Under the pieces are notes generated by a model that was not told where the DNA came from, did no database searches, and was given only the letters and a program-made list of their open reading frames with translations. This document shows, piece by piece, positions 2,192 through 61,796 of a stretch of DNA of 64,000 bases (positions are counted from its first letter, which is position 1; each line of letters starts with the position of its first letter). Both the position numbers and the translations under genes were made by a program. The DNA is taken from positions 149,359-213,358 of the forward strand of contig CAYZNW010000001.1 of NCBI GenBank assembly GCA_964480345.1, given 5' to 3'. The DNA comes from an uncultured Candidatus Saccharibacteria bacterium. GTDB lineage: Bacteria > Patescibacteriota > Dojkabacteria > SC72.

Positions 2192-3220
2192 TTACTCCTT
2201 AAATATCTTTGCAATATAGAAGCCCATCATTTTAGCATTAGGAATTATTCTAATACTATTCACCACCTCAGAGTTATATGTATGACCACTCCATTTTCTA
2301 ATTCCTGGCTTAATATATTCTCTGTATACATTAAATTTCTCATCCTTTATCAACTCAATCTTCTCGACTCTTGCATTAGGAAATAGGTTCAAAAGATGAG
2401 ATACAACTCCCTCATTCTCCTCAGGCTCCAAAGTACATGTAGAGTAAACCATACTATTACCATGCTTCAATGTCTTAAATGCCGAAACTATTAACTCCTT
2501 CTGAACAAACACACTCCTCTTAACCTTATCCATACTCCAATACCTTAAAGGCCTAGGACCATTCATATATATTAAACCCTCACCGCTACACGGAGCATCA
2601 AGAAGCACATTATCAAAATAGATAGGATACTTCTTGCCAAAATCTCTACCATCACTCAATGTCACCTTAATACTCTTGTCTCCAAACTGATTAACCACAG
2701 ATTGTAAATCATCTACCCTTTTCATATCAGAATCATTTGCTAAAATCTGAGCTTTACCATTAGTTAAATCAGCTATATGTGTACTCTTACTCCCAGGAGC
2801 AGCACACATATCCAAAATTTTTTCATTCTCCTTAGGATCTAAAATCGTAGTAGCTAATATACTTGAAAGATTTTGAATATAATATTTACCATCATTGTAC
2901 TCCTCAGTTTGCGAAACTTCCGACTTATCCTTATTCAAAACAAAAAAAGTATTCCTAGCCCAACTAACCTCTTCTAAATCAAACCCTTTTCTAGCTAATA
3001 TATCCTTTGTTTCTTTAACATCACCCTTTAATGAATTTAATCGAATAGTAGTTATCGGCCTATGAGAAAAAACATTCCTAACCTTACCCTTTGATACCAT
3101 TAAAATACTTGCCATACGAGAGAAAAAAACATCATCTTTTGTATAGTATTTCTCAGGAATATTACGATTAGTAAACTTCTCTCTTGTTTGTTTGTAATTA
3201 CTTCTTTTTCTTTTCTTCAT
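2192..3220 (-). CDS. RNA cytosine-C5 methyltransferase, NOL1/NOP2/Sun (RsmB/RsmF-like) family
   Basis: 342 aa; SAM-binding motif CAAPGSKS and catalytic DAPCSGEG motif typical of Sun-family m5C methyltransferases; no NusB-like N-domain. Confidence 0.8.
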   Translation of the reverse strand: MKKRKRSNYKQTREKFTNRNIPEKYYTKDDVFFSRMASILMVSKGKVRNVFSHRPITTIRLNSLKGDVKETKDILARKGFDLEEVSWARNTFFVLNKDKSEVSQTEEYNDGKYYIQNLSSILATTILDPKENEKILDMCAAPGSKSTHIADLTNGKAQILANDSDMKRVDDLQSVVNQFGDKSIKVTLSDGRDFGKKYPIYFDNVLLDAPCSGEGLIYMNGPRPLRYWSMDKVKRSVFVQKELIVSAFKTLKHGNSMVYSTCTLEPEENEGVVSHLLNLFPNARVEKIELIKDEKFNVYREYIKPGIRKWSGHTYNSEVVNSIRIIPNAKMMGFYIAKIFKE

Positions 3221-3957
3221 TATATATCCCCCTTAATATATTTAATTATACTTCCAATAACTAAACCAGTACTCTCTGTACGCAGTATATTTCCTTTCAA
3301 TTTAACAAAAACAAAACCTAATCTTTTAAATACATCGATATCTGAGACATCCCATCCACCTTCAGGACCAATAGCTACATATACAGGTTTAGAGAAATCT
3401 AACACATTTACTAACTCACTTAAATATTTAGAACTATCCACCTCAGTAGCTAAACAAATCTTAACAGAGTCATTCCTCATAGCCAATTTGTTCAAATCAG
3501 ATATTTTAATCGGTTTATCAATAATTGTAGGAAAAATATTCCTTGATTGTTCTGTTGCATCCTTAACCAATTTATTCCAAAATCCTACGTCCTTCTCTGC
3601 CTTCTTTACACTTTTTAACGAATACTTTGATTCAATAGGGATAATCCTCTCAATTCCTAATTCAACACTTTTTTCGATAAAGTAATTAAACTTAGTATCA
3701 TTACTTAATGATTGGATAATAGTGATATCAGGAGTATATTCCGATTCCCTCTCTCCGAGATCCTCTACAATCTGAACCTCTACAGAATTCTTAGTAATAT
3801 CTGTAACCTGGGCAAGAAATCTCTTCTCGTATGTCTCAATTATCACCACATCTTCAATATCTACCAACTTCTGAGCAATAGAATTTCTGCTATCAGAATC
3901 AGAGAGATGAGCTATATCATCTACAGATAACTTATGTTTTATAAAATATTTTTGCAT
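3220..3957 (-). CDS. rsmE: 16S rRNA (uracil1498-N3)-methyltransferase RsmE-like
   Basis: 245 aa; C-terminal IGPEGGW ... LKGNILRTESTG motifs characteristic of the RsmE family; its stop overlaps the start of the downstream methyltransferase by 1 nt. Confidence 0.7.
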   Translation of the reverse strand: MQKYFIKHKLSVDDIAHLSDSDSRNSIAQKLVDIEDVVIIETYEKRFLAQVTDITKNSVEVQIVEDLGERESEYTPDITIIQSLSNDTKFNYFIEKSVELGIERIIPIESKYSLKSVKKAEKDVGFWNKLVKDATEQSRNIFPTIIDKPIKISDLNKLAMRNDSVKICLATEVDSSKYLSELVNVLDFSKPVYVAIGPEGGWDVSDIDVFKRLGFVFVKLKGNILRTESTGLVIGSIIKYIKGDI

Positions 3958-4128
3958 ACAGTATTATACTATACATAGGTTAAAGGTAGGTGAATTCTCT
4001 TACGGTATCTATCTTACCATCCTAAATTTCATAGATATTTAAGATTCTATAAGTCCGTATCTGAGTATTTAACTCTTGATATTAATACTCTGAACTAACG
4101 CATCGTTAATAACTTCCTTCTTCTAAAT

Positions 4129-5112
4129 GTGTATAGATATTTGAAATTAGAGCATATTTCATATACATTACTAAGAATGAAATCTGCCTCAAAAGAAAGC
4201 TCAACAAACTCTAAGCTACTATGTTTTGTAATGAGTATTTGGTGCATAGCTTTGTTGCTTACCGGACTATTAATGATCTCAAAAAATAGAGAAGAGAGGG
4301 AGGTGGTACAAAAACCTAATGTCGTAGCTCTAGAAAAACCAATTGTTTCAACGATAGAACATAGTCAAGAAGTAAAAGGAGTTGAAGTGGATTCTGAGTA
4401 CAGTATTCAATTCTGCTATATGGATTTCTGTAAACAACTCGAAAGTAAGAGATTCTTAGAAATGGTTGAAAACGGAAAAATATCTTCCAATTTACTAAAT
4501 ATATGGATACATACGGACTTAGAGAAGTATTTCCTTCCACTTTATTCTAAACAAGAACTAGTGAAAAATTCGAAAGGAGAATATCTGAGTAGAGTTTCTG
4601 AATATATTCCTAATTACTCTGCTATATATGAGATGTTAAATGACAGGTATGTAGCTGGTGAATATGATATTAAAATAAATATACCATCAATAATGACAGC
4701 TTCTACAGATGGTAAATTTGCATACAAATATATAGAAGTTGATAACACTCAGCAAAAACTGTATGTATGGATAGATGGTGTAGTTATTAAAGAGATATTT
4801 CTATCTGGAGCAAGAGAGGATTCTTCTGTTAAAGGTGTTTTTAATATTGTAGATAAAGGGTTGCAACCAATAGCGCCTGGAGATAAGTATATGCCTTACT
4901 GGATGGCATTTTACTATGAGCCAAGTAAGTCTACTTGGTACGGTTTGCACGGTTTGATATGGATACCAAAATCTGATGGTAGTAGATGGATTGAGCCAGT
5001 AAGTAATATAGGTAGAAGAATTAGTGGTGGGTGTATACGAATGAAGGTGGAGGATGCAAAGTATTTGTATGGGATTTTTGAAAAAGGAGAGTATGTGTTA
5101 GTACATGATTAG
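4129..5112 (+). CDS. L,D-transpeptidase (YkuD domain) with N-terminal membrane anchor
   Basis: C-terminal HGLIWIPKSDGSRWIEPVSNIGRRISGGCIRM = His/Cys catalytic signature of YkuD L,D-transpeptidases; N-terminal TM helix; true start probably ATG near 4177 (first 16 codons begin with GTG and overlap a repeat element). Confidence 0.7.
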   Translation: MYRYLKLEHISYTLLRMKSASKESSTNSKLLCFVMSIWCIALLLTGLLMISKNREEREVVQKPNVVALEKPIVSTIEHSQEVKGVEVDSEYSIQFCYMDFCKQLESKRFLEMVENGKISSNLLNIWIHTDLEKYFLPLYSKQELVKNSKGEYLSRVSEYIPNYSAIYEMLNDRYVAGEYDIKINIPSIMTASTDGKFAYKYIEVDNTQQKLYVWIDGVVIKEIFLSGAREDSSVKGVFNIVDKGLQPIAPGDKYMPYWMAFYYEPSKSTWYGLHGLIWIPKSDGSRWIEPVSNIGRRISGGCIRMKVEDAKYLYGIFEKGEYVLVHD

Positions 5113-9194: not shown

Positions 9195-11093
9195 ATGAAA
9201 ATTGCTCAGCTTCCTAAAAGAAGAACAAACAACATAGTGTTGATAATCCTCATAGTAGGACTACCAATACTACTCTTTGCTACATACAAAGTAGTACAAG
9301 TAATAATCAACGCAGCAGCAGACACACAACCAAAAAATGTAGTAGTAAGTGATATAACTACAAATTCAATAAACATATCATGGGCAACAGACTCACCAGT
9401 AACAGGAGCAGTAATTGTATATCAAAATGGAACACAGAAATCACAAGTAGCTGATGCCAGAGGAGTAGGGAGGAAATTGACTCATTATGTATCAATAGAT
9501 AACCTAGAACAAGGAACAGCATACGACTTTACAATACTCTCTGGAACAGATAAATATGCATCTGAATCAGGAAAGAAATTTACATTTACAACCCCCTCGA
9601 TAACACCACAACAAGTAACTCCACACCCAATATTCGGATCTGTTACTACAAAAACAGGAGATAACGCAATAATATATGCAACACTAAGTGACAAATCAAC
9701 ATACCCTGTATCTGCTAGAGTAAAAGAAGAAGATGGCACCTGGTTAATAGACCTAGCTTCTCTCAGAAATATCTCAGATAAGAAACTTGTTACCATATCT
9801 AATATCTCTAATATATCAATAATAGTTGTAGCAGGAGTAAACAGGGGAGCTGTATTAGAAGGAAGCTACTCCTCACTTTTCAACAATGATGGGAAATTAG
9901 TAGCATCTAGCACATTAGCATTAGCTGAAAGAACAGATATGTACTCTTTCATACCAGATGGAGCAAAATTAGTAGCATATGACGAAGTCCCCCCTCCTGC
10001 ACCGACGCCAACTCCTACTCCAACACCCACGCCTAGACCAACTCCAACTCCAACTCCAACACCACCTCCTGCACCAATACCTGAACCTGAAGAAACCTTC
10101 ACAAGGAGATATAGAATCATACATCAATTAATTTGGGGTAATCTCTCATCGGAAGTAGCTTCATCACCTGTTACATCTTCTGTAACTGGAGAGAAAAGCA
10201 TCAAAGTAACAAACTTAACAGATACAGGATTTACTGTAGTATGGCTCTCTAAAGAGAAAGAGAAAGGATCTGTGAATTACGGAACAAGTAAATCAAATCT
10301 AAACAATACGGCTAGAGACACAAGAGATGGGTTAGTCTCACAAGGAGAATACTATGTACACAATATAGATGTATCAAAACTCCAACCTGAAACCACATAC
10401 TACTACGAAGTTCTCTCTGGTAAAAACACATATGACAACAGTGGAGCAAAATACAGTATAGATTCATTTGCAACATTAAGCTCACCTCCTGCATTTAAAA
10501 GTATAAAAGGAAAATTCAGCAGTATGCCATCTCATGGTGAGGGTATATTAATAGCAAGTATAGAAGATGCAGATGAAACAGGAACATTAGGAAAAAGTCT
10601 TCCAATCTCTTCTGTTATCGGAGATGCTGGGTTATTTACCTTGACTGTTTCAAATAGCTGGAGCACAGATGGTACAAAATATTTCGAATATACATCTCCT
10701 GATAAAATTAGCTTGGATGTAATGACAACATTTGATGTTAAGACTCAAACAACTACCATGAAAGATGTTGAAAGTATTGATATAGATGTTGATCTAAAAG
10801 ATATCTCATCTATACCCACTTCTACATCAGTAGGAAAAGTTCCAAGATTAACAAATTACGGAATATTAGGTGCGACAGATGGTTCTTCATTACCTGTAAG
10901 CAATCCTACAATTTCATCAACCTCTACGAACAGAATAACTACTACAAGTGGTTCTATTCCAAAAACAGGAATAGTAGAAGATATGATTTACGGTTTAGCA
11001 ATCTCGCTCTCTTTTATTCTCTTAGGAAGTATAATATACTTTAAGTCTGTTAAAAGGAAGAAATATAAAGGTAAAATGGTTACTAACTTATGA
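9195..11093 (+). CDS. cell-surface protein with two FN3/PAP-N-type domains, Pro/Thr linker and C-terminal LPXTG-like (IPKTG) sorting signal
   Basis: 632 aa; signal peptide with AAA-D cleavage-like site; two domains with ...SW(A/L)T...G.V.Y....YY(F/E)..SG pattern; PTPTPTPTPRPTPTPTP linker; C-terminus SIPKTG + hydrophobic stretch + KRKKYKGK tail. Confidence 0.8.
   Translation: MKIAQLPKRRTNNIVLIILIVGLPILLFATYKVVQVIINAAADTQPKNVVVSDITTNSINISWATDSPVTGAVIVYQNGTQKSQVADARGVGRKLTHYVSIDNLEQGTAYDFTILSGTDKYASESGKKFTFTTPSITPQQVTPHPIFGSVTTKTGDNAIIYATLSDKSTYPVSARVKEEDGTWLIDLASLRNISDKKLVTISNISNISIIVVAGVNRGAVLEGSYSSLFNNDGKLVASSTLALAERTDMYSFIPDGAKLVAYDEVPPPAPTPTPTPTPTPRPTPTPTPTPPPAPIPEPEETFTRRYRIIHQLIWGNLSSEVASSPVTSSVTGEKSIKVTNLTDTGFTVVWLSKEKEKGSVNYGTSKSNLNNTARDTRDGLVSQGEYYVHNIDVSKLQPETTYYYEVLSGKNTYDNSGAKYSIDSFATLSSPPAFKSIKGKFSSMPSHGEGILIASIEDADETGTLGKSLPISSVIGDAGLFTLTVSNSWSTDGTKYFEYTSPDKISLDVMTTFDVKTQTTTMKDVESIDIDVDLKDISSIPTSTSVGKVPRLTNYGILGATDGSSLPVSNPTISSTSTNRITTTSGSIPKTGIVEDMIYGLAISLSFILLGSIIYFKSVKRKKYKGKMVTNL
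9990..10090 (+). repeat. low-complexity Pro/Thr-coding tract (ACTCCA-type near-repeats)
   Basis: ccgacgccaactcctactccaacacccacgcctagaccaactccaactccaactccaaca read directly; encodes the PT linker. Confidence 0.6.
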
Positions 11094-20738: not shown

Positions 20739-23700
20739 TTATTTCTTACTCTGTAGTTTCTTTTTTGCTAGTACTGATACAAGTATACTTCCAACACTAT
20801 ACACAATTGGCCAAGACCAATATATTTGGCAATCTCCTTTTGTAAATAGATACCATGCACCACATGAGATTATGACGAAGAGTACAGTTATCAAATTATT
20901 TTGTGTGAGTAATATTATTATGAGTAATAATACTGCAATAATCGTTGGAGCTATAATAGAAGGTTTTTTGCAGGCTTCTGTAGTCTCATCACTCCTGTTG
21001 TTGTCTTCTCTTACTGTATCCGTAAGCTGTTTGTTTTCTGGCTTTATATCTTCCTTCTCTGCAGTTTCGCTTTTATCTTGCTCTTGTGGCTTTGGTGGAG
21101 CCATCAAAGTAAGTTCGTTTGTAGTTATATCTGTAATAACTGAGCCATCTCTAGATATTATCTCTACTTTTACATCATAAACTCCAAGTATCAATCCATT
21201 TTCTAAATTGGTGAGATCTAATTTCCATATATCTCCATCTGTTGTTAATTCTGGATTAATACCAAGAGTGTATTTTACATCATTTGTTAGAATAGAAAGT
21301 TGTAGAGAGTTCTTCGAATCGTATGTCCCTGTAATTACAGGTTTGTTTCCTATGAATTTTAATGTGTCTACAGTTGGAATATTAGCATCAGGTCTAAGGA
21401 TAGACAGTTCATTACTAGTAGGATCGTTTGTATAATTTCCTGCAGGATCGGTAAAAGAAACTATGACATCATAAATACTTGGTTTCAAATTTATGAGAGA
21501 ACCTTTTGCTAAAGTCCAAGTCTGATCTTTATTGTTTATCGCATTATATTTAACTCCATTTACTAAAACACTTATTTCCGCTGTTATATCATCCACAGTC
21601 CCACTTAACTCAGGGGAGGTATCTATACCATCTGGGATTGGATTAAGAGTACCTGTAGGGCTAATAGTGTCGATAGTTATTACTTTTTCTATTGCAGTAG
21701 TGGTTGTATTTCCTGCCAAATCAGAAGCAGTAACAGAGAAAGTATACTCATCATCTATAAGGGGTGGAGTAATGATTCCTGCTTGAAGAATCCAGGTACC
21801 ATTTCCATTATTCTTAGCTGAATATGTATTACCATTGATTGATACTTGTATGGTGGCCGTTTTATCATCAATAACTCCTTCTATTACAGGAGAAGAAGTA
21901 TTTCCATATTGCGTTGTGATGTCTATAACAGGAGGAGTTATGTCATAGGTTACTGTATTATCAGTACTACTACTTTTCTCATTTCCATTTCCTGCATTTC
22001 CAAAGATCTTGTTTTCTTCAATTTCAACTTTTGCGATGTCTCCATCAGTCATGTATGTAACTTCTATTTCATATGTAAGATTATCTATTTTAGTTAATCT
22101 TGTTACAGCCCCAGTTGTCCCAGAAAGGGTAATATCACTAGCATCAAATGTACTTTCATTAATAGGTTTAGAAAATATGATAGTAAATAGGGCAGAATTG
22201 ATATTTGTTGGGTCATTCTGCTCAGCTTTTTGATTAATAGTAACAGTTGGCTTGATAGTATCAATTTCTATTTCATTTGTAGTAGTATCGTATCCATTAT
22301 TGAGAGCTAAATCGGTAGCTTTTACAATAGCATCGTATTTGCCATCTATTAGTTTACTAATGGTGGAATGTGGAAGAATCCAAGTATCGTCACCATTGTT
22401 TGTTGCTGAGTACTCAATACCATTTATTGTAACTTTTATCGTTGCGTATTCATCATTTACTGTTCCTGTTAATTGCGGGGAGGTATTATTTGTAATTAAA
22501 TTATCTACTGTTACAGTAGGTGGCGTTATATCGTATGTTACATAAGCATTGCTTTCTGTACTTTCCTGATTTAAGTTACCATATATATTTTCTACTTTTC
22601 CAGCTGGTAACTCTGCTGTAATAGTATCTCCATCTGTCATTCCGTTTACTGTAACTTGCCATGTATCTTGCTTTAATTGTATGAAATTAGTAACCGATGC
22701 AGTTGTGCTTCCGATAATAGCAATATCATCTGAAGTAAAGGTTGAAGGAATAACATTTTGGCAAGAGAATGTAAATATGAAAATAACTTGATTGGTATTT
22801 GTTGGATTTGGTTGTGTATCTGGAATTGTGACTTCTACAGTAAGTAGAGTATCATCTATGATTAATTCTCCTGTCGATGTATCACTACCAACATTTCCAG
22901 CTTTATCAGTTGCAGAAGCTGATATGTCGTATGTTCCATTAGGAATATGGTCAGGAATGGTTAAACTCCATCGTCCAATAGCAGAGTGGTTAGCTGTATA
23001 TGTATTACTATTAACAGTTACTTTAATAATTGTATCGTCATCATCTATACTACCTCCAACAGTAGGTGTGTGTTTATTTGTTATGGTATTTGCTACGGTT
23101 ATTGTAGGAGCAACATTATCAATGGTTAATTCGTTATTTGAGGTATCTTGTCCGGTATTACCTACAGTATCTGTTGCTTTTGCAATTATATTATATGTAC
23201 CATCTGAGAGAGTGTTTATTATAGAAGCAGGTAGAGACCAAGTTCCATTAGTATTGTTAGTTGCGCTATATTCTATCCCTTCTACAGTAATCTTAATTAT
23301 TGCTGAGTTGTCATCTATAGTTCCAGTCAGTTCAGGAGATCTATTTTGAGTAAATAGTGTATTTATAGTAATGACTGGAGGAGTAGCGTCGTATGTAACT
23401 GTGTTATCGGTACTTGTGCTTGCAGTATTACTGTTCCCAGCTAAGTCAGTGAATTTCCCTGCTGATATACTTAAGGAAATAGTACTGACACTGTTCATAC
23501 CTGCAATTGTTACACTCCATTCAGTTGCACTTTCTCTTTGGAACCCTGTTATTGTTCCAGGACCACCAGCTATTGAGATAATTGATGGTGTAAATGACAC
23601 TTCATTTATTGGTTCAGAAAGTATAACAGTAAATTTAGCAGAGTTAATATTTGTAGGATCAGGCTGACCGACCATTTGATTTACTGTTACAGTTGGTTTT

Positions 23701-25889
23701 GTAATATCGTAAGTTACTTTATTATCTGTACTTGTACTAGCAGTATTACTATTGCCAGCAAGATCATTAATAACTCCAGATGGTATAGTAGCTACTACAG
23801 TATCTCCATCAGTCATACCAGTAACAGTAATATTCCAAGTAGTATTATTTGTCCCTACCTTAGAAAAACCAGTTACTGTTCCAGTAGTTCCTTCTAAAGT
23901 AATATCTGATGCAGAGAAAGTAGATTCGTTTATAGACTCAGAGAATACTACAGTAAATTGAATAGAGTTAATATTTGTAGGATCAGCCTGCCCAACTTTT
24001 TGATTAATAGTTACTGTTGGTTGAACAGTATCTATTGTTAGTTCATTTGTCGAAGAGTCTGTTCCGATATTTGTAGCAGTATCTGTTGCAGTAGCGGAGA
24101 TGTTGTATGTCCCATTTGATAATGCAACAACAGTTTGTACGGACCAAGTACCATCTCCTTCGTTTACACCATTATATTGAAGGCCATTTACTGTGATTTT
24201 AATAGTTGCTAAAGAATCATCGATATTTCCTGTTAGAAGAGGAGAAGTAACATTTGTTGTTAATGGATTAATTGTAATTATTGGTGGTGTATGGTCCCAA
24301 GTTATACTGTTATCTGTACTTGTGCTTGCTAGATTTGTATTTCCTGCTAGATCTTCAACTTTGTCTTCAAGCAGGGAGAGTTTTAATGTCATATCAGTTG
24401 TCATGCCAGTAACAGTCGCTGTCCATTGTGTAGATGTATTTTGTGCTAAGTTTGTAACTTGAGCCGTTCCTGCAATAAGGCTTAAATCGTCAGTCGTAAA
24501 TGTTGAGGCATTAATAGGTTCTGAAAAAACAATAGTAAAAAGAAGATTTAATCCATTTGTTGGATCTGCTTGTCCTGAAGCTTGATTGACTGTAACAGTT
24601 GGTCTAGTTATATCATATGTGATTTGATTATCTGTACTTGTACTTGCAGTGTTGTTATTTCCAGCGAGATCAGTAATTTTTGATGATGCAAGTGAAAGAG
24701 TAGTTGTTGTATTGGTGGCCATTCCACTTAGTTCTGCACTCCATGTTGTATCGTCAACTTTTGTAAGGTTTGAAACAGTTGCAGTGCTTCCTGAAATAGT
24801 GAAATCTGATGGTTGCAGTGTGGTTTCATTTATTTTTTCACTAAATACAATAGTATATGTCATAGGTGAAGTGTTTGAAGGATCTTTTTGAGTAGTAGCT
24901 TGGTTAATTGTAAGGGTCGGAGAAGTAGTATCTATCGTTAATTCGTTTACAGTATTATCGGATGAACTATTCATAGCTGGATCTGTCACTGTCGCCTCTA
25001 TATTGTATACACCCTCTGCAAGTTGAGTAGGAATAGTAAATGTCCAGGTGTCGTTGGTATTGTTAGTTGCAATATAGCTAACACTATTTACAATCAGACG
25101 GATAGTAGCAGTACTATCATCAGTTGTTCCTGTAATAGTAGGTGTTGTATCATTTGTAATTATTGGGTTGATGGTTACTGTAGGGATTGTGATATCGTAA
25201 GTTATCTGATTATCTGTACTTGTACTTGCTAGATTTGTATTGCCAATCAAATCTTCTATAACATCGGCTGGGATAGTTGCACTTACTGTCTCTCCATCAC
25301 TCATACCAGTAACCGTGATATTCCAAGTTGTATTCTCTGCCCCTACCTTAGTAAAATCAGTAATAGTTCCAGTATTACCAGATATGAGAATATCAGATAA
25401 GGTAAAAGTGAGTTCATTGATAGGTTTTGAAAATATTACAGTGAATTGAGCAGAGTTAACATTAGTCGGATCAGCTTGTCCAGCTTTCTGATTGATTGTT
25501 ATTGACGGTTTCGTACTATCAATAGTTAGTTCATTTATAGAATTATCATTAGAGGTGCCGTCAACAGGATCTATTGCAGTAGCGACAATATCATAAACGC
25601 CATCGTTTAGTGCTGAAGTTATCTCTGCAGACCAAGTTCCATTTTGATTATTTATTGCAGAGTAACTGTTCTCGGATATTGTAATAGAAATAGTACTTGT
25701 TGTTGTACTTATTGTTCCTGTGATTGTAGGGGTAGAATCATTTGTGATTAGTGTGTTAATAGTAATGACAGGAGGAGCTGCTTTTGTCACAAACTTCCTA
25801 GCGAAAATGAAAAGACTTAACAAGACAAACGGAAATATTAGTATTAATAGGACTTTCTTGGAATTACTCTTCTTCATTCCTGTGGGCAA
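20739..25889 (-). CDS. giant surface adhesin-like protein with ~8 tandem units of two alternating bacterial Ig-like domain types and C-terminal TM anchors
   Basis: 1716 aa; N-terminal signal/anchor; repeats of ...TNDTTPTITGT.DD..ATI...VNG..Y.ATNN.NGTW... alternating with ...PTVTINQK.GQ.DPTN.NS..FTV.FSE.INE.TF..SDI...GTTGTVT...TVTGMTDG...DLAGN.N.ASTSTDN.VTYDIT; Glu/Lys-rich stalk and 2-3 TM helices at C-terminus. Confidence 0.85.
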   Translation of the reverse strand: MPTGMKKSNSKKVLLILIFPFVLLSLFIFARKFVTKAAPPVITINTLITNDSTPTITGTISTTTSTISITISENSYSAINNQNGTWSAEITSALNDGVYDIVATAIDPVDGTSNDNSINELTIDSTKPSITINQKAGQADPTNVNSAQFTVIFSKPINELTFTLSDILISGNTGTITDFTKVGAENTTWNITVTGMSDGETVSATIPADVIEDLIGNTNLASTSTDNQITYDITIPTVTINPIITNDTTPTITGTTDDSTATIRLIVNSVSYIATNNTNDTWTFTIPTQLAEGVYNIEATVTDPAMNSSSDNTVNELTIDTTSPTLTINQATTQKDPSNTSPMTYTIVFSEKINETTLQPSDFTISGSTATVSNLTKVDDTTWSAELSGMATNTTTTLSLASSKITDLAGNNNTASTSTDNQITYDITRPTVTVNQASGQADPTNGLNLLFTIVFSEPINASTFTTDDLSLIAGTAQVTNLAQNTSTQWTATVTGMTTDMTLKLSLLEDKVEDLAGNTNLASTSTDNSITWDHTPPIITINPLTTNVTSPLLTGNIDDSLATIKITVNGLQYNGVNEGDGTWSVQTVVALSNGTYNISATATDTATNIGTDSSTNELTIDTVQPTVTINQKVGQADPTNINSIQFTVVFSESINESTFSASDITLEGTTGTVTGFSKVGTNNTTWNITVTGMTDGDTVVATIPSGVINDLAGNSNTASTSTDNKVTYDITKPTVTVNQMVGQPDPTNINSAKFTVILSEPINEVSFTPSIISIAGGPGTITGFQRESATEWSVTIAGMNSVSTISLSISAGKFTDLAGNSNTASTSTDNTVTYDATPPVITINTLFTQNRSPELTGTIDDNSAIIKITVEGIEYSATNNTNGTWSLPASIINTLSDGTYNIIAKATDTVGNTGQDTSNNELTIDNVAPTITVANTITNKHTPTVGGSIDDDDTIIKVTVNSNTYTANHSAIGRWSLTIPDHIPNGTYDISASATDKAGNVGSDTSTGELIIDDTLLTVEVTIPDTQPNPTNTNQVIFIFTFSCQNVIPSTFTSDDIAIIGSTTASVTNFIQLKQDTWQVTVNGMTDGDTITAELPAGKVENIYGNLNQESTESNAYVTYDITPPTVTVDNLITNNTSPQLTGTVNDEYATIKVTINGIEYSATNNGDDTWILPHSTISKLIDGKYDAIVKATDLALNNGYDTTTNEIEIDTIKPTVTINQKAEQNDPTNINSALFTIIFSKPINESTFDASDITLSGTTGAVTRLTKIDNLTYEIEVTYMTDGDIAKVEIEENKIFGNAGNGNEKSSSTDNTVTYDITPPVIDITTQYGNTSSPVIEGVIDDKTATIQVSINGNTYSAKNNGNGTWILQAGIITPPLIDDEYTFSVTASDLAGNTTTTAIEKVITIDTISPTGTLNPIPDGIDTSPELSGTVDDITAEISVLVNGVKYNAINNKDQTWTLAKGSLINLKPSIYDVIVSFTDPAGNYTNDPTSNELSILRPDANIPTVDTLKFIGNKPVITGTYDSKNSLQLSILTNDVKYTLGINPELTTDGDIWKLDLTNLENGLILGVYDVKVEIISRDGSVITDITTNELTLMAPPKPQEQDKSETAEKEDIKPENKQLTDTVREDNNRSDETTEACKKPSIIAPTIIAVLLLIIILLTQNNLITVLFVIISCGAWYLFTKGDCQIYWSWPIVYSVGSILVSVLAKKKLQSKK
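21390..25770. repeat. coding tandem repeats (~570-nt unit, ~8 copies, diverged) encoding alternating Ig-like domains
   Basis: periodicity read from the protein translation; the + strand of this region is full of short spurious ORFs. Confidence 0.6.
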
Positions 25890-40919: not shown

Positions 40920-42185
40920 ATGAACAAATTCATAGAAAAATTGAAGTCCATCTGGAAAACAGAGGAGATTAGAAAAAAAATACTCTTTTCACTAATCATT
41001 ATGATAGTGTATAGAGTACTCTCTGCCATACCTGTATCAGGAATCCCAGCTGAAGCCATCAAACAACTATTTGAAGGAACTGGAGTAGGAGAAGTCCTAT
41101 CTACAGTCTCAGGCGGAGTATTAGAAACAGCATCAATCGTAGCAATAGGATTAACACCATACATCAATGCTTCAATCATCTTCCAATTACTTGGTACAGT
41201 AATTCCAAAACTAGAAGAATTACAAAAAGAGGGACAAGAAGGAAGAAGAAAAATATCTATGTACACCAGAATCGCTACAGTACCACTAGCAATCTTACAA
41301 TCATTTGTGATTTACTCCTCACTCTTAGCCATGGGACTAATCCCACAACTTGGAGCATTAGAACTAATTGCAATGTCAGCAACCCTATCAGCAGGCTCAA
41401 TGGTAATGATGTGGTTTGGAGAACTAGTCTCCGAAAGTGGAGTCGGTGGAGGATCCTCATATTTAATCATGTTAGGAATACTCTCAGGAATACCTGGCAC
41501 TATGAGAACCAATTTCTTAACGATGGACGACACGCAGAAAATAATATTTACAATATTCTCATTACTACTGATCATATCAGTTATCTTTGTAACTCAAGCG
41601 GAAAGACGAGTGAAAGTACAATATTCTCGAAGAGTACGAACTGGAGGAGCTATGGAAAGCTATATCCCAATAAAACCAACACAATCAGGAGTTATGCCAG
41701 TAATATTCGCTATGGCATTCATATCCTTCCCACAACTAATAGGCAAATTCTTAATAAGTAAAAATTACAATCAGGGATTAACAGATTTCTTGCAAAGATT
41801 ATTAGATTGGTTAAACAACCCATATATATACAATTCATTAATTTTCGTACTAGTCATAGCTTTCTCATTCTTCTATCTAACAGTCGTTTTTAAAACGGAT
41901 GAATTAGCAGAGAATTTGCAAAAGCAAGGAGCGTTTATACAAGGTATAAGACCTGGAGATAACACATCTGATTATTTGCGAAAAGTCAGTTATAGATTAG
42001 CTGTAATAGGAGCTATATTCTTAGCAGTACTATCTATCTTACCTGATATAACAGTCCAACTTGGCTTAATACCAAGAGCTGTATTCTCTGGTACAGGATT
42101 ACTAATTGTCGTAGGTGTAGTTCTCGAAATCAAAAGACAAATAGAATCAATGATGACCGTAAGAAGTTATAACAGATACCTTTAA
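40920..42185 (+). CDS. secY: preprotein translocase subunit SecY
   Basis: 421 aa, 10 TM helices, position after L15. Confidence 0.9.
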   Translation: MNKFIEKLKSIWKTEEIRKKILFSLIIMIVYRVLSAIPVSGIPAEAIKQLFEGTGVGEVLSTVSGGVLETASIVAIGLTPYINASIIFQLLGTVIPKLEELQKEGQEGRRKISMYTRIATVPLAILQSFVIYSSLLAMGLIPQLGALELIAMSATLSAGSMVMMWFGELVSESGVGGGSSYLIMLGILSGIPGTMRTNFLTMDDTQKIIFTIFSLLLIISVIFVTQAERRVKVQYSRRVRTGGAMESYIPIKPTQSGVMPVIFAMAFISFPQLIGKFLISKNYNQGLTDFLQRLLDWLNNPYIYNSLIFVLVIAFSFFYLTVVFKTDELAENLQKQGAFIQGIRPGDNTSDYLRKVSYRLAVIGAIFLAVLSILPDITVQLGLIPRAVFSGTGLLIVVGVVLEIKRQIESMMTVRSYNRYL

Positions 42186-42238
42186 GGTCTTTGATTCTCT
42201 TGGATATATTAAGGTTTTTACTACCTATTTCATAATTA

Positions 42239-42810
42239 TTTAAGATTCTATAGGATCTTAACGCTTAGATTAATCCATTTTAAGGGCAAGAACCAAACGA
42301 TAGTAGTTAATAAGAGTGTCATTTTCCTTGAGGATAAATAACGTATTTTGGTCTAATTCTTGAGGATTTTCATTAATATATTTTACTATCTTTTCAAAAT
42401 AAACAATATCGGTAATCTTCTTTTTCTTATACCGCCCTTGAAATAAATGACCAACAACACCATATCTCCTATTTATGTACTTAGTATAAACAGCAGAAAT
42501 AGTTTGTATCGCTTTCTCTGTCTTCTGAGAACCGTTCCTTACAATTAAAATGTGAAAGTGATTCGGCATGATACATAAAGAAATAATGCTAAAAAACCTA
42601 CGATCAAAATACTTATAAAATAACGAAAGAAATTTATAATAATCCTTTTTTGAGAAACAAATCTTTTGCTTTCTGTTTCCTCTATTGTATATATGATAAA
42701 TCGACCCTTTTTCTAAAGATATCCTCATTTAAAAGTTATATCTAATAATTATTAAAATTAAGTTAAATTGGCATTAGTTGCGAAGAATTAACCAATAGTA
42801 TCTTATAAAA
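42239..42810 (-). mobile_element. IS200/IS605-family (RAYT-like, tnpA-only) element inserted between secY and adk, flanked by inverted copies of a REP-like motif
   Basis: HUH Y1 transposase gene flanked by TTTAAGATTCTATAGG (42239-42254) and a degenerate inverted copy CCAATAGTATCTTATAAA (42792-42809); secY-adk gap is ~700 bp instead of the usual few nt. Confidence 0.5.
42270..42728 (-). CDS. tnpA: IS200-like / REP-associated tyrosine transposase (HUH Y1 family)
   Basis: 152 aa; YHIYNRGNRKQKIF...CIMPNHFHILI (HuH motif)...VGHLFQGRY (catalytic Tyr) matches Y1_Tnp/PF01797 pattern. Confidence 0.8.
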   Translation of the reverse strand: MRISLEKGSIYHIYNRGNRKQKICFSKKDYYKFLSLFYKYFDRRFFSIISLCIMPNHFHILIVRNGSQKTEKAIQTISAVYTKYINRRYGVVGHLFQGRYKKKKITDIVYFEKIVKYINENPQELDQNTLFILKENDTLINYYRLVLALKMD

Positions 42811-42894
42811 TTATTAAATTTCTCGATATTTCTCTTTTGTGGTAAGATGATTCAACAGCCTTAAACGTACGTACGTAATTTTATACAAAATCAT

Positions 42895-43539
42895 ATGACA
42901 ATTCTTTTTCATGGCCCTTCGGGTTGCGGTAAGGATACTCAAGTGGAGCTTTTAGTTGAACAGTACAACTTTGAAAGTATTGGAACAGGAGAAATGCTAA
43001 GAAAGATGTTTGCAGAGAGCGATCCAGATGCTATAGAAGCAAATAAATACATGACTCAAGGTAAGTTTGTACCAAATGAAATTGTATATAGAATGCTCCC
43101 AAAATGGTTAGATAAATACGATCAATCTAAGAATTGGGCATTTGTATCTGTTGTTAGAGAAGTAGGTCAAATCCCTCTTTTTGACGAGCTATTAGAGAAA
43201 AAAGGAAGAGTGCTAGATAAATTCGTCCACTTTAAGTTAAGTGAGGAAACTGCAATAGAGAGAATGTCGCTCAGATGGTATTGTCCAAAATGTGGAGCTA
43301 CATATCATGATAAATATAAACCTGAAGAGAAAAAAGGATACTGCACAAAGTGTTCTACTAAATTAGTGAAAAGAGATGATGATCAACCAGAGAAGATTAA
43401 AGAAAGATTGCGAGAATACAACAGAACTATTCAACCGATACTAGATGAATATGAAAAAAGAGGTATTTTAATTGAAATAGATGCGGCACCTTCAATTGAA
43501 GAAATACATCAAAATATTCTTCAATCTTTAAACTTGTAA
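42895..43539 (+). CDS. adk: adenylate kinase (zinc-lid type)
   Basis: GPSGCGKDTQ P-loop; LID with CPKCG...CTKC. Confidence 0.9.
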   Translation: MTILFHGPSGCGKDTQVELLVEQYNFESIGTGEMLRKMFAESDPDAIEANKYMTQGKFVPNEIVYRMLPKWLDKYDQSKNWAFVSVVREVGQIPLFDELLEKKGRVLDKFVHFKLSEETAIERMSLRWYCPKCGATYHDKYKPEEKKGYCTKCSTKLVKRDDDQPEKIKERLREYNRTIQPILDEYEKRGILIEIDAAPSIEEIHQNILQSLNL

Positions 43540-43612: not shown

Positions 43613-43641
43613 TTGAATTAGTAGTCTTCTTTTGATATAAT
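43613..43641 (+). promoter_or_regulatory. near-consensus sigma70-type promoter upstream of infA (TTGAAT-17-TATAAT)
   Basis: hexamers and 17-nt spacer read directly; 38 nt upstream of infA ATG. Confidence 0.45.
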
Positions 43642-48845: not shown

Positions 48846-49150
48846 GATGTGCAAGTACACTAGATGGTTGCATCTGCTTTAGTAGATGAGGAAAGTCCGG
48901 ACTTCACGTCGATCTTGAACATATCAAGAGGAGTGCCAACGCGAGTTGGAAGGGAGTGATCTTTTGGAGAAAAGGGCAACAGAAAGTTATACCGCCTACT
49001 TGTAGGTAAGGGTGAAATGGTAGTGTAAGAGACTACCGGGTATTGTAGTAATACAGTATTGCGTGGTAACCCCCACTCGAAGCAAGGTTTTACCGCTTAG
49101 ATAGATAACCATCGTTATACAGAATTCGGCTTACTGTGTGCTTGCACATA
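48846..49150 (+). ncRNA. rnpB: RNase P RNA, bacterial type A, compact (~300 nt)
   Basis: conserved blocks read directly: GGAAAGTCCGG (P4 5' strand), AAGGGTGAAATGGTAGTGTAAGAGACTACC (CR-II/III), ACAGAATTCGGCTTAC (P4 3' strand); P1 pairing GTGCAAG...CTTGCAC. Confidence 0.75.
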
Positions 49151-50127: not shown

Positions 50128-50336
50128 AGCAAATAATAACATTTAAGGAGGTTGTATGCATAGATGGTGTCTGCTTTACTCTTTGTTTTTAATAAATATT
50201 TCAGACACTATGAGTTCCTAATTCGGAGAAGATATTAATATCTTCTTCCTTCTCCGAATTTCTCATTTAATTGTGAAAGGTGTATAACTCTTCAAAACAC
50301 TAGGTTTAATGCATATGTAGATGGTAAAATACAACG

Positions 50337-52452: not shown

Positions 52453-53091
52453 ATGAAGATAGAAAAGAACAAAACATTTATGCTAATGCTTTGTGGAGGA
52501 ATTCTACTTGCATTGGCCATAGTAACAGTATTGATAATATCTTTCTTTACAAAAAGAGAAGATGGTGTAGATAAAATAATTGTAGAAGCTGATTCTGTAA
52601 GATTTTCAAAAGAGTATCCAGCAGTACCAAAAGAAAATATGTTTGTTTACAAAAGCTTAGAAGAATCGGTAAAGATCTTGAAAAGTGGAAAAGGTTTAGT
52701 ATATCTAGGTTTCCCTGAGTGTAGATGGTGTCAGGCATATGTTAAATATTTGTATGAAGTTGCGAAAGATGAAAATTTAGAAGAGATATACTACACAAAT
52801 ATTTTAGAGGATAGAAAAAATAGTACAGAAATATATAAAGAAGCAGTTGCTATACTTGAAAAAGAGCTATTAAAAGATAATGAAGGAAATCCTAGAATCT
52901 ATGTTCCTGATATAACTGTTGTAAATAGTGGAGAGATATTAGGACATGACAATGAAACATCAGTTGTAAGCGAAGAAGATGGTACACCAGAGGAGTATTG
53001 GACTGAGCAGAGAATCATTGATTTGAAAGCTAGATTAAAAGAGATGATTGATAAATTACAATCAAATACATGTAGTAGCTGCGAAATTTAA
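52453..53091 (+). CDS. membrane-anchored thioredoxin-like protein (CxxC), putative extracytoplasmic thiol-disulfide oxidoreductase
   Basis: 212 aa; N-terminal TM; GLVYLGFPECRWCQAYVKYL resembles thioredoxin-fold beta1-CxxC-alpha1. Confidence 0.45.
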   Translation: MKIEKNKTFMLMLCGGILLALAIVTVLIISFFTKREDGVDKIIVEADSVRFSKEYPAVPKENMFVYKSLEESVKILKSGKGLVYLGFPECRWCQAYVKYLYEVAKDENLEEIYYTNILEDRKNSTEIYKEAVAILEKELLKDNEGNPRIYVPDITVVNSGEILGHDNETSVVSEEDGTPEEYWTEQRIIDLKARLKEMIDKLQSNTCSSCEI

Positions 53092-59032: not shown

Positions 59033-59160
59033 TTTTGCCAAACCTATAAATTTAAATCGACAGATATTATATCCTGAGGGGTAGGAAGTCAAATAAATAC
59101 GGTCCTGTAGTAACTATACTCAAATAGTGGTTAATATGTTAAAATCTGTCTCGAATATAT

Positions 59161-59235
59161 GCCGCTATCGTCTAACGGTTAGGACACAGGATTCTCAATC
59201 CTGCAATCGGGGTTCGATTCCCCGTAGCGGTACCA
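59161..59235 (+). tRNA. tRNA-Glu (anticodon CUC), CCA encoded
   Basis: manual cloverleaf: acceptor GCCGCTA/TAGCGGT, D-arm TCGTCTAACGGTTAGGACA, anticodon stem CAGGA/TCCTG with loop TTCTCAA, T-arm CGGGG-TTCGATT-CCCCG, 3' ACCA. Confidence 0.8.
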
Positions 59236-61518: not shown

Positions 61519-61796
61519 AATCAGATTATATCTCATGAAAAGAAGTTTGGATAGCTTTGTCATATATATTTAAGATTCTATGGGGTAGTTCTGTTATATA
61601 AATACATATTTAGTATTCTTTTTTGATTTTACACAGGTAATTTAAAAAGATATGACATGTGGATAAGTAAAATTAATAGGAATAACAATATCTATACTTT
61701 AATTTTATCCTATATTATCTTAATAAATTATTAAAAAAGTACAGCTAAACCCCCTGCAGACTACCAATTTATCTAACTTAAAGGTATACTCCATAT

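Follow-up and report, generated by a model that had tools for sequence, protein, structure and literature searches.

The DNA examined in the present study is a 64-kb stretch (hereafter the window) of AT-rich sequence (~33% GC) from a member of Candidatus Dojkabacteria, within the Candidate Phyla Radiation (CPR), an assignment that is backed by the source names of close homologues. The window includes the ribosomal superoperon, the most conserved operon in bacteria, in which secY and adk are here separated by a gap of 709 nt. A single open reading frame (ORF) lies inside this gap, on the minus strand and hence antisense to the superoperon, and encodes a tyrosine nuclease of the Y1/HUH type, flanked on both sides by inverted copies of a short motif that recurs elsewhere in the window. 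An earlier interpretation made from the letters alone (the sequence-only reading) had recognised a Y1 gene of 152 aa on the opposite strand of this gap, which the ORF and its Pfam match bear out, and had taken it for an inserted element related to IS200 or to the REP-associated tyrosine transposases (RAYTs; REP, repetitive extragenic palindromic). The genes at the locus are the following:

40920-42185: secY
42270-42728, minus strand: Y1/HUH tyrosine nuclease gene, 152 aa, class 2 (Y...NP), subclass-2.1/TIRYT-like, with HUH residues H57-F-H59 and catalytic tyrosine Y117
42895-43539: adk

The Y1 ORF matches the Pfam family Y1_Tnp ("Transposase IS200 like") with an E-value of 1.4e-11 and 45 bits, against a cut-off of 23, and no second Pfam domain was found in the protein. 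In an alignment of 32 Y1 homologues, which was used both to assess residue invariance and to build a profile, the N-terminal H-x-YNRG (motif YHIYNRG), the HUH element N56-H57-x-H59 and Y117 are invariant. The HUH motif PNHFHILI named in the sequence-only reading is present; the catalytic tyrosine had been placed in GHLFQGRY, where the residue is phenylalanine in some of the 32 homologues, and is instead assigned to the invariant Y117. This tyrosine lies in KYINENP and aligns with that of YIYINP in TnpA_REP of E. coli (4ER8), the consensus of the homologues around it being YIxxNP or YIHxNP. Searched against the PDB, the family profile retrieved 4ER8 with an E-value of 7e-9 and the IS200-type ISDra2 TnpA with only 0.07, and single-sequence searches of the PDB and PHROGs with the Y1 protein returned no matches. 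An AlphaFold 2 (AF2) model of the protein has a predicted local distance difference test (pLDDT) value of 93.6, and a structure search of the PDB with it returned Y1 transposases only. The best superposition was 4ER8, with a template modelling (TM) score of 0.65 and a root-mean-square deviation (rmsd) of 2.7 Å, as compared with ~0.55 and 6-8 Å for IS608 and ISDra2. Alignment, profile and AF2 model together establish the fold and the catalytic residues and, by sequence and model, the ORF is an intact single-stranded DNA (ssDNA) nuclease/ligase of the Y1 HUH superfamily, class 2.

The motifs NHFH, GHLFQG (FQ) and YINENP fit the subclass 2.1 row in Table 1 of PMC6006769, a comparison that was made by eye against the published signatures rather than with the authors' hidden Markov models. 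Subclass 2.1 of TnpA_Y1 has the key motifs NH[YF]H, FQ and Y[IV]HLNP and a median length of 238 aa, and was equated by Quentin et al. 2018 (PMC6006769) with the Group 1 RAYTs of Bertels et al. 2017 (PMC5581495) and with the TIRYTs of Di Nocera, De Gregorio & Rocco 2013 (PMC3733652), tyrosine transposases associated with terminal inverted repeats (TIRs). The TnpA of IS200/IS605 forms subclass 1.1, with the Y motif Y-x-x-x-Q, Y[IV]ENQ (Table 1, PMC6006769). Following the core, the model of the window protein adds one strand and one helix, and the C-terminal tail kept by CPR homologues of 200-230 aa is not retained in its 152 aa. Against the NCBIfam family REP_Tyr_transpos (NF047646) the protein scores 43.7 bits, under the equivalog cut-off of 80. 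The annotation "IS200-like transposase" carried by such CPR genes is misleading.

Four other Dojkabacteria lineages have orthologues of the Y1 gene at the same site and in the same orientation (L004, L010, L016 and L104; these labels, like L019, L102-L106, L112, L113 and others used below, denote compared loci from other genomes). Y1 identities of 70, 56, 46 and 46%, respectively, parallel SecY identities of 91, 82, 73 and 78%, and the divergence of Y1 also parallels that of Adk and the ribosomal proteins. The ratio of nonsynonymous to synonymous substitution rates (dN/dS) of the gene is ~0.08, with dS saturated even between the two closest genomes. Where the gene is missing, secY and adk lie next to each other, as the sequence-only reading had held to be normal, at spacings of 24-48 nt (48 nt in L105; 24 and 29 nt in the L103/L112 clade). 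A neighbour-joining (NJ) tree of six concatenated operon proteins, comprising 1239 aligned residues, places L105 as the outgroup; L103 falls inside the group that carries Y1, where its sister is the pair formed by the window and L004, and L103 and L112 are sisters of one another. Empty sites in the outgroup and in a nested clade point to an old, single gain of Y1 and a single clean loss later on, which is the simplest history of the gene. The synteny, the selection and the pattern of gain and loss are shown by these comparisons, and the Y1 gene is domesticated, inherited vertically under purifying selection, and not a recent insertion as first proposed.

The exact Y1 protein is on record at the secY-adk locus only, and the gene is single-copy in the window. 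A metagenome scan with the Y1 alignment recovered 80 cousins of 29-48% identity, none of which is adjacent to secY or adk, and the plasmid and phage collections yielded distant Y1 matches only (<38% identity). No target-site duplications were seen by eye at the boundaries of the flanking repeat arms. The sequence-only reading had named an orthologous gene at the same locus in relatives, without flanking repeats, as a finding that would speak for domestication and against its own proposal; the shared site was found, whereas the flanking repeats have been kept.

These repeats had been noticed through a 13-mer, TTTAAGATTCTAT, said to recur at three sites. Three exact copies are indeed present (4038, 42239 and 61569, all on the plus strand), as against 0.03 expected, and none of 100 shuffles reached three. 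With up to two mismatches the 13-mer is not enriched in the window (16 found versus 10.8 expected), the signal residing in a longer unit of ~32 nt (family D14). The degenerate inverted copy suspected beyond the Y1 start is likewise real, since 42227-42254 and 42792-42819 are 82% complementary over 28 nt. A weight matrix for the longer unit detects exactly six copies in the window, with scores of 25-41 and no matches between 9 and 25; the top score in Markov-simulated sequence was 14.6. The six copies are:

4024-4055, plus strand (c1): dispersed single, in the divergent spacer between genes for an RNA methyltransferase and a YkuD-domain protein
42225-42256, plus strand (c2): stop-proximal arm, CTATTTCATAATTATTTAAGATTCTATAGGAT, 14-16 nt past the Y1 stop codon
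61555-61586, plus strand (c3): doublet arm, between the divergent glyS-like and lysS genes
42790-42821, minus strand (c4): start-proximal arm, ~64 nt upstream of the Y1 start codon
61707-61738, minus strand (c5): doublet arm facing c3, the doublet spanning 61555-61738
50185-50216, plus strand (c6): dispersed single, more diverged, in the divergent fmt/queA spacer, scoring 25.4 although outside the training set

The c3/c5 doublet has the polarity X...rc(X), as do the arms around Y1. An arrangement in inverted pairs, raised in the sequence-only reading, is found for c2/c4 and c3/c5 and not for c1 and c6, which are single. The arms of the doublet are ~120 nt apart and the sequence between them is unrelated to the Y1 cassette; an origin of the doublet as a deletion derivative of that cassette was considered and rejected, only the arms being similar and the interiors unrelated. 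The proposed palindrome AAGATTCTATAGGATCTT (42242-42259) exists, but at -2.8 kcal/mol (z -1.3) it folds no better than shuffles and it is not conserved in relatives. Ten motif copies folded as ssDNA all failed to do better than shuffles (z -1.3 to +1.5). With no copy forming a significant hairpin, and six copies only in 64 kb, the label "REP-like" does not apply in the strict sense. What stands of the suggested REP-associated tyrosine transposase is the affiliation of the protein with the RAYT branch and the inverted repeated motif at its flanks, and not the REP-like nature of the repeats. Separately from the motif, a hairpin that is strong and nested and can pair in alternative ways (AATTCGGAGAAG ... 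CTTCTCCGAATT, around an inner palindrome ATATTAATAT) was observed just past c6, at 50220-50260 in the divergent fmt/queA spacer; it is preceded by a small ORF (ATG 50157) that has a perfect AAGGAGG ribosome-binding site, and it has no Rfam match.

All comparable copies of the motif are conserved in position. Around the Y1 gene, both arms are conserved in L004 and L010 although synonymous sites are saturated, one arm is detectable in L104, and L016 retains only a pair of 11-nt cores (CTnATAGTAAT). A further matrix was built solely from motif copies away from Y1 genes; the 99th percentile of its null in a 700-nt region is 7.9. In each secY-adk gap its top two matches are the arms, inverted relative to one another, with scores of 38.2 (c2) and 23.7 (c4) for the window, 30.4 and 8.0 for L004, and 25.3 and 14.3 for L010. 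The arms and the dispersed copies are members of one motif family.

An exact-pattern scan of the contigs of other genomes with TCATANNTATTTAAGATTCTAT gave four matches, one of which, in the L004 genome, revealed the orthologue of the glyS-lysS doublet (L019 4870-4901 and 5024-5055). L102, which is more basal, has a shorter version of it. The doublet is missing from L106 and L113, where the glyS-lysS spacer measures ~50 nt versus ~230 nt and other intergenic lengths are unchanged, and also from L101, which belongs to the L016 genome. L106 and L113 were equated with the L103 and L112 lineages, which lack Y1, across different assemblies, on the basis of adjacent accessions and of position in the tree. 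The absence of the doublet in this apparently Y1-less clade suggests that the gene cassette and the doublet were lost on the same branch. Among 531 kb of other CPR/Dojkabacteria loci, the motif was found only in L102 and L104. A search of 34 kb of the L016 genome for dispersed copies of CTnATAGTAAT returned nothing convincing.

Repeats at the gene boundaries are not peculiar to this subclade. In approximately half of the 72 evaluable CPR cousins, which occupy unrelated contexts, strong inverted or palindromic repeats abut both ends of the Y1 gene, and some of these repeats recur elsewhere in their own locus. The published TIRYT consensus GGGGWSAS occurs in the repeats of L045, L053, L059 and L031; many cousins have palindromic flanking repeats and some of them a GTAG/CTAC tag. 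The palindromes on both sides of many CPR Y1 genes (L021-L100) are perfect or near-perfect and 25-41 nt long, as at L030 (3890-3950 and 4608-4650) and L044 (1336, 2516, 3215 and 4194, four copies in 5 kb). REP-like families do exist in CPR genomes, although subclass 2.1 has been reported as being without REPs. A second, unrelated Y1 gene was also noted in the L016 genome (L101 848-1279, 143 aa), between tgt and rny; it is 31% identical to the secY-adk copy of that genome and has GC-rich flanking repeats of its own (GGACAGACCTAGGACAGATC type), and the window has, at the equivalent position, a 212-aa ORF (52453-53091) without a Pfam match.

The presence of an antisense gene inside the superoperon raises the matter of how adk is transcribed, for which the sequence-only reading had offered read-through or re-initiation. 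The -10 elements identified upstream of the genes concerned are:

42838-42848, plus strand: extended -10 promoter of adk, TGTGGTAAGAT
42735-42740, minus strand: probable -10 hexamer of the Y1 gene, TATAAC, 6 nt before the ATG (42728), a leaderless-type geometry
61525-61530, minus strand: predicted -10 hexamer of the glyS-like gene (ATG 61518)
61785-61790, plus strand: predicted -10 hexamer of lysS (ATG 61797)
50322-50330, plus strand: predicted -10 element of queA (ATG 50337)

A TGnTAA(G/C)AT box in front of adk is conserved in every Y1-bearing lineage (L004, L010, L016 and L104), and in lineages without Y1 the secY-adk gap leaves no space for a promoter. This conservation makes re-initiation past the antisense gene likely, and adk transcription probably restarts downstream of Y1. 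No terminator-like site was found in the secY-adk gap, so that read-through, yielding an antisense Y1 RNA, is possible as well. The near-consensus infA promoter predicted at 43613-43641 was recovered as TTGAAT-17-TATAAT with TG. Clear promoters in this DNA are of the extended -10 type, TGnTAnnAT (tRNA-Glu, infA, adk and the RNA methyltransferase gene); the tRNA-Glu(CUC) gene lies at 59161-59235, with the extended -10 element TGTTAAAAT at 59137-59145.

In the glyS-like gene, lysS, Y1 and queA, a -10 hexamer stands ~6 nt before the start codon and there is no Shine-Dalgarno sequence. This proximal geometry is conserved in L019, L102 and L106 and suggests leaderless or near-leaderless mRNAs for the four genes. 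For the glyS-like gene, the start given by the longest ORF (61563) is probably incorrect, and 61518 is the conserved one. With proximal -10 hexamers of their own, glyS, lysS and Y1 would not need the motif copies as promoters. Within the motif, no sigma-70 pair of -35 and -10 elements at a spacing of 16-18 nt was found in either orientation, and Rfam detected no T-box or leader RNA at the glyS-lysS spacer or at any motif copy, its only matches being RNase P RNA and one tRNA. A likeness of CTATAGG to T7-type promoters was judged coincidental, as positions -1 to -4 vary among copies.

The published arrangement that the locus most resembles is the TIRtron, in which a class-2 Y1 gene is flanked by TIRs that do not form hairpins, with TIR singles and dimers located elsewhere (PMC3733652). 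The points of likeness are the NH[YF]H, FQ and Y-x-x-x-N-P motifs of the protein, the position of the gene between terminal inverted repeats and not stem-loops, the low gene copy number, the occurrence of the motif elsewhere at low to moderate copy as singles (c1 and c6) and a dimer (c3/c5), and the GGGGWSAS of CPR cousins. The locus departs from the TIRtron in its AT-rich arms without GGGGWSAS, which is the majority TIR motif, TIRs lacking it having also been described (PMC3733652); in its protein of 152 aa versus the subclass median of 238, without a C-terminal SS/HTH-like tail (HTH, helix-turn-helix); and in being fixed at one superoperon site across a CPR subclade, a group outside those surveys. 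We interpret the system as a domesticated TIRtron, a tyrosine nuclease that lies between TIRs and has its own small family of cognate repeats, and put the probability of this reading at roughly 60%.

The history implied by a domesticated TIRtron would be one in which the gene and two inverted, AT-rich arms of ~30 nt entered the secY-adk spacer once, in the ancestor of one Dojkabacteria subclade. The cassette would then have passed down vertically under purifying selection, antisense to the superoperon, and been deleted once, in the L103/L112 clade, and adk would have gained an extended -10 promoter of its own. Arms, singles and the glyS/lysS doublet would most likely represent the cognate DNA sites of the enzyme, making the system a non-palindromic analogue of a RAYT with its REPs or REPINs (REP doublets forming hairpins). 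The cleavage and rejoining of ssDNA by the TnpA_REP, IS608 and ISDra2 enzymes is established biochemistry, and by homology the Y1 protein is expected to do the same through a 5'-phosphotyrosine at Y117, the HUH histidines holding a metal ion. We infer that it may bind or nick the motif, whose best-conserved core is CTATnG with adjacent TTAAG, and that the dispersed copies may be products or clients of Y1 activity and depend on the protein.

Several observations weigh against this interpretation. The motif is rich in A and T and includes hexamers that resemble a -10 element (TAAGAT on one strand and TAGnAT on the other), and five of its six copies lie in divergent promoter regions, so that a regulatory role is possible. 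GGGGWSAS is absent from the window arms, as is from the protein the C-terminal domain typical of subclass 2.1. L016 keeps the Y1 gene, but its arms are cut to the 11-nt core and it lacks the doublet as well as dispersed copies in the 34 kb searched, a pattern indicating that the gene can persist without an obvious repeat family. The co-loss of cassette and doublet constitutes a single evolutionary event, and the matching of lineages across assemblies on which it relies is indirect. It is possible, but more doubtful than the TIRtron assignment itself, that a truncated TIRYT maintains TIR singles and doublets near divergent housekeeping promoters, with the repeats decaying upon gene loss, in an AT-rich and non-palindromic partnership akin to that of RAYTs and REPINs.

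Among the alternatives, the one that survives best regards the motif as a clade-specific promoter/operator family, or the signal of a small regulon, that is unrelated to Y1 catalysis, with the Y1 gene as a domesticated or relic passenger between two such signals. It would account for the location of five of the six window copies in divergent regions and for the presence of a copy in four of the six divergent regions of the window, as well as for the conservation of copies at orthologous positions instead of a scattered distribution. The -10-like hexamers also keep TAnnAT in orthologues (TAAGAT, TAACAT and TAATAT; TAGAAT and TAGTAT), and TAAGAT serves as the -10 in bona fide promoters, namely those of adk and the RNA methyltransferase gene. 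However, every clear promoter in the genome has a TGn extension, which the motif lacks, and glyS, lysS and Y1 already possess a proximal -10 ~6 nt from the ATG. The c2 copy lies between convergent gene ends, where either orientation could produce antisense RNA only, yet it is the best conserved, and the arms of the doublet face each other. Furthermore, the motif is missing from the glyS-lysS spacer of the presumed Y1-less sister clade and, beyond L102 and L104, from the 531 kb of other loci, and inverted repeats flank these Y1 genes family-wide in unrelated contexts. On this evidence we consider a regulatory origin of the motif unlikely.

A classical RAYT, whose enzyme mobilises palindromic, hairpin-forming REPs or REPINs in high copy, is a good deal less probable. 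In its favour, the protein is a class-2 Y...NP enzyme whose closest solved structure, by profile and by geometry, is the E. coli TnpA_REP (YafM, 4ER8), and the gene is, like a RAYT, domesticated, present once and passed on vertically. It is flanked by a repeated, putatively cognate motif in inverted copies, and an inverted doublet occurs elsewhere; the lack of the doublet in lineages thought to be gene-less recalls the decay of REPINs after RAYT loss, and the palindromic flanking repeats of many CPR cousins, some with the GTAG/CTAC tag, are also as expected of RAYTs. The repeats of the window, in contrast, are non-palindromic and do not fold (0 of 10 copies better than shuffled ssDNA), carry no GTAG tag but an ATAG/CTAT core, and seem far fewer, with six copies in the 64 kb covered. 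Some 120 nt of unrelated sequence separate the arms of the doublet, and the NCBIfam score of 43.7 falls short of the equivalog cut-off of 80.

An active or recent insertion sequence of the IS200/IS605 type with subterminal hairpins, as the sequence-only reading had also envisaged, is refuted for practical purposes: the Y1 HUH fold, the single catalytic tyrosine, the Pfam Y1_Tnp match and a size of 152 aa in a unit of ~600-700 bp resemble IS200, IS608 and ISDra2, but the Y motif is Y...NP and not their Y...Q, IS200-type structures are matched only weakly (E 0.07), there are no terminal hairpins and both flanks fold no better than shuffles, no close relatives occur on plasmids or phages, and in place of multiple near-identical copies at patchy locations (as judged from the 64 kb and protein records) there is one locus, shared by five lineages whose SecY identity falls as low as 73% and whose dS is saturated.

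The TIRtron arrangement is itself known, the novelty lying in the bacterial group and the unusual location. If repeats are maintained by the nuclease, this would be the first documented case of a gene-plus-repeat system of this kind in CPR/Patescibacteria, and the fixed site beside secY and adk would be a hint that the gene serves the host, for example in ssDNA processing at transcribed or replicating promoter regions, rather than transposing selfishly. The case bears on the host role of domesticated Y1 nucleases, both RAYTs and TIRYTs. The genome is streamlined, at ~1 Mb, and so poor in repeats that a family of only a few copies becomes tractable, and sister lineages with clean loss of the gene are natural knock-outs for the dependence of the repeats on Y1. 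An antisense gene has been tolerated in the superoperon for long enough to saturate synonymous sites, along with what appears to be a compensating adk promoter.

A number of minor observations concern other parts of the region. The adk-infA junction is also variable in Dojkabacteria: the insertion in the L004 lineage (3165-4946) is a glmS-like gene of 593 aa, L104 (4178-6415) has two inserted genes, Abhydrolase_2 and one for a 504-aa protein, and no map gene lies between adk and infA in the lineages examined. Elsewhere in the window, RNase P RNA (class A, 153 bits) is located at 48852-49148 and begins 15 nt past the preceding DUF4349 gene. CCNACN repeats of 12-18 nt at 9990-10097, inside a 632-aa ORF (9195-11093), probably encode a Pro/Thr-rich linker. 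A 1716-aa ORF on the minus strand (20739-25889) is composed of diverged internal repeats of ~300 nt (families D1-D9).

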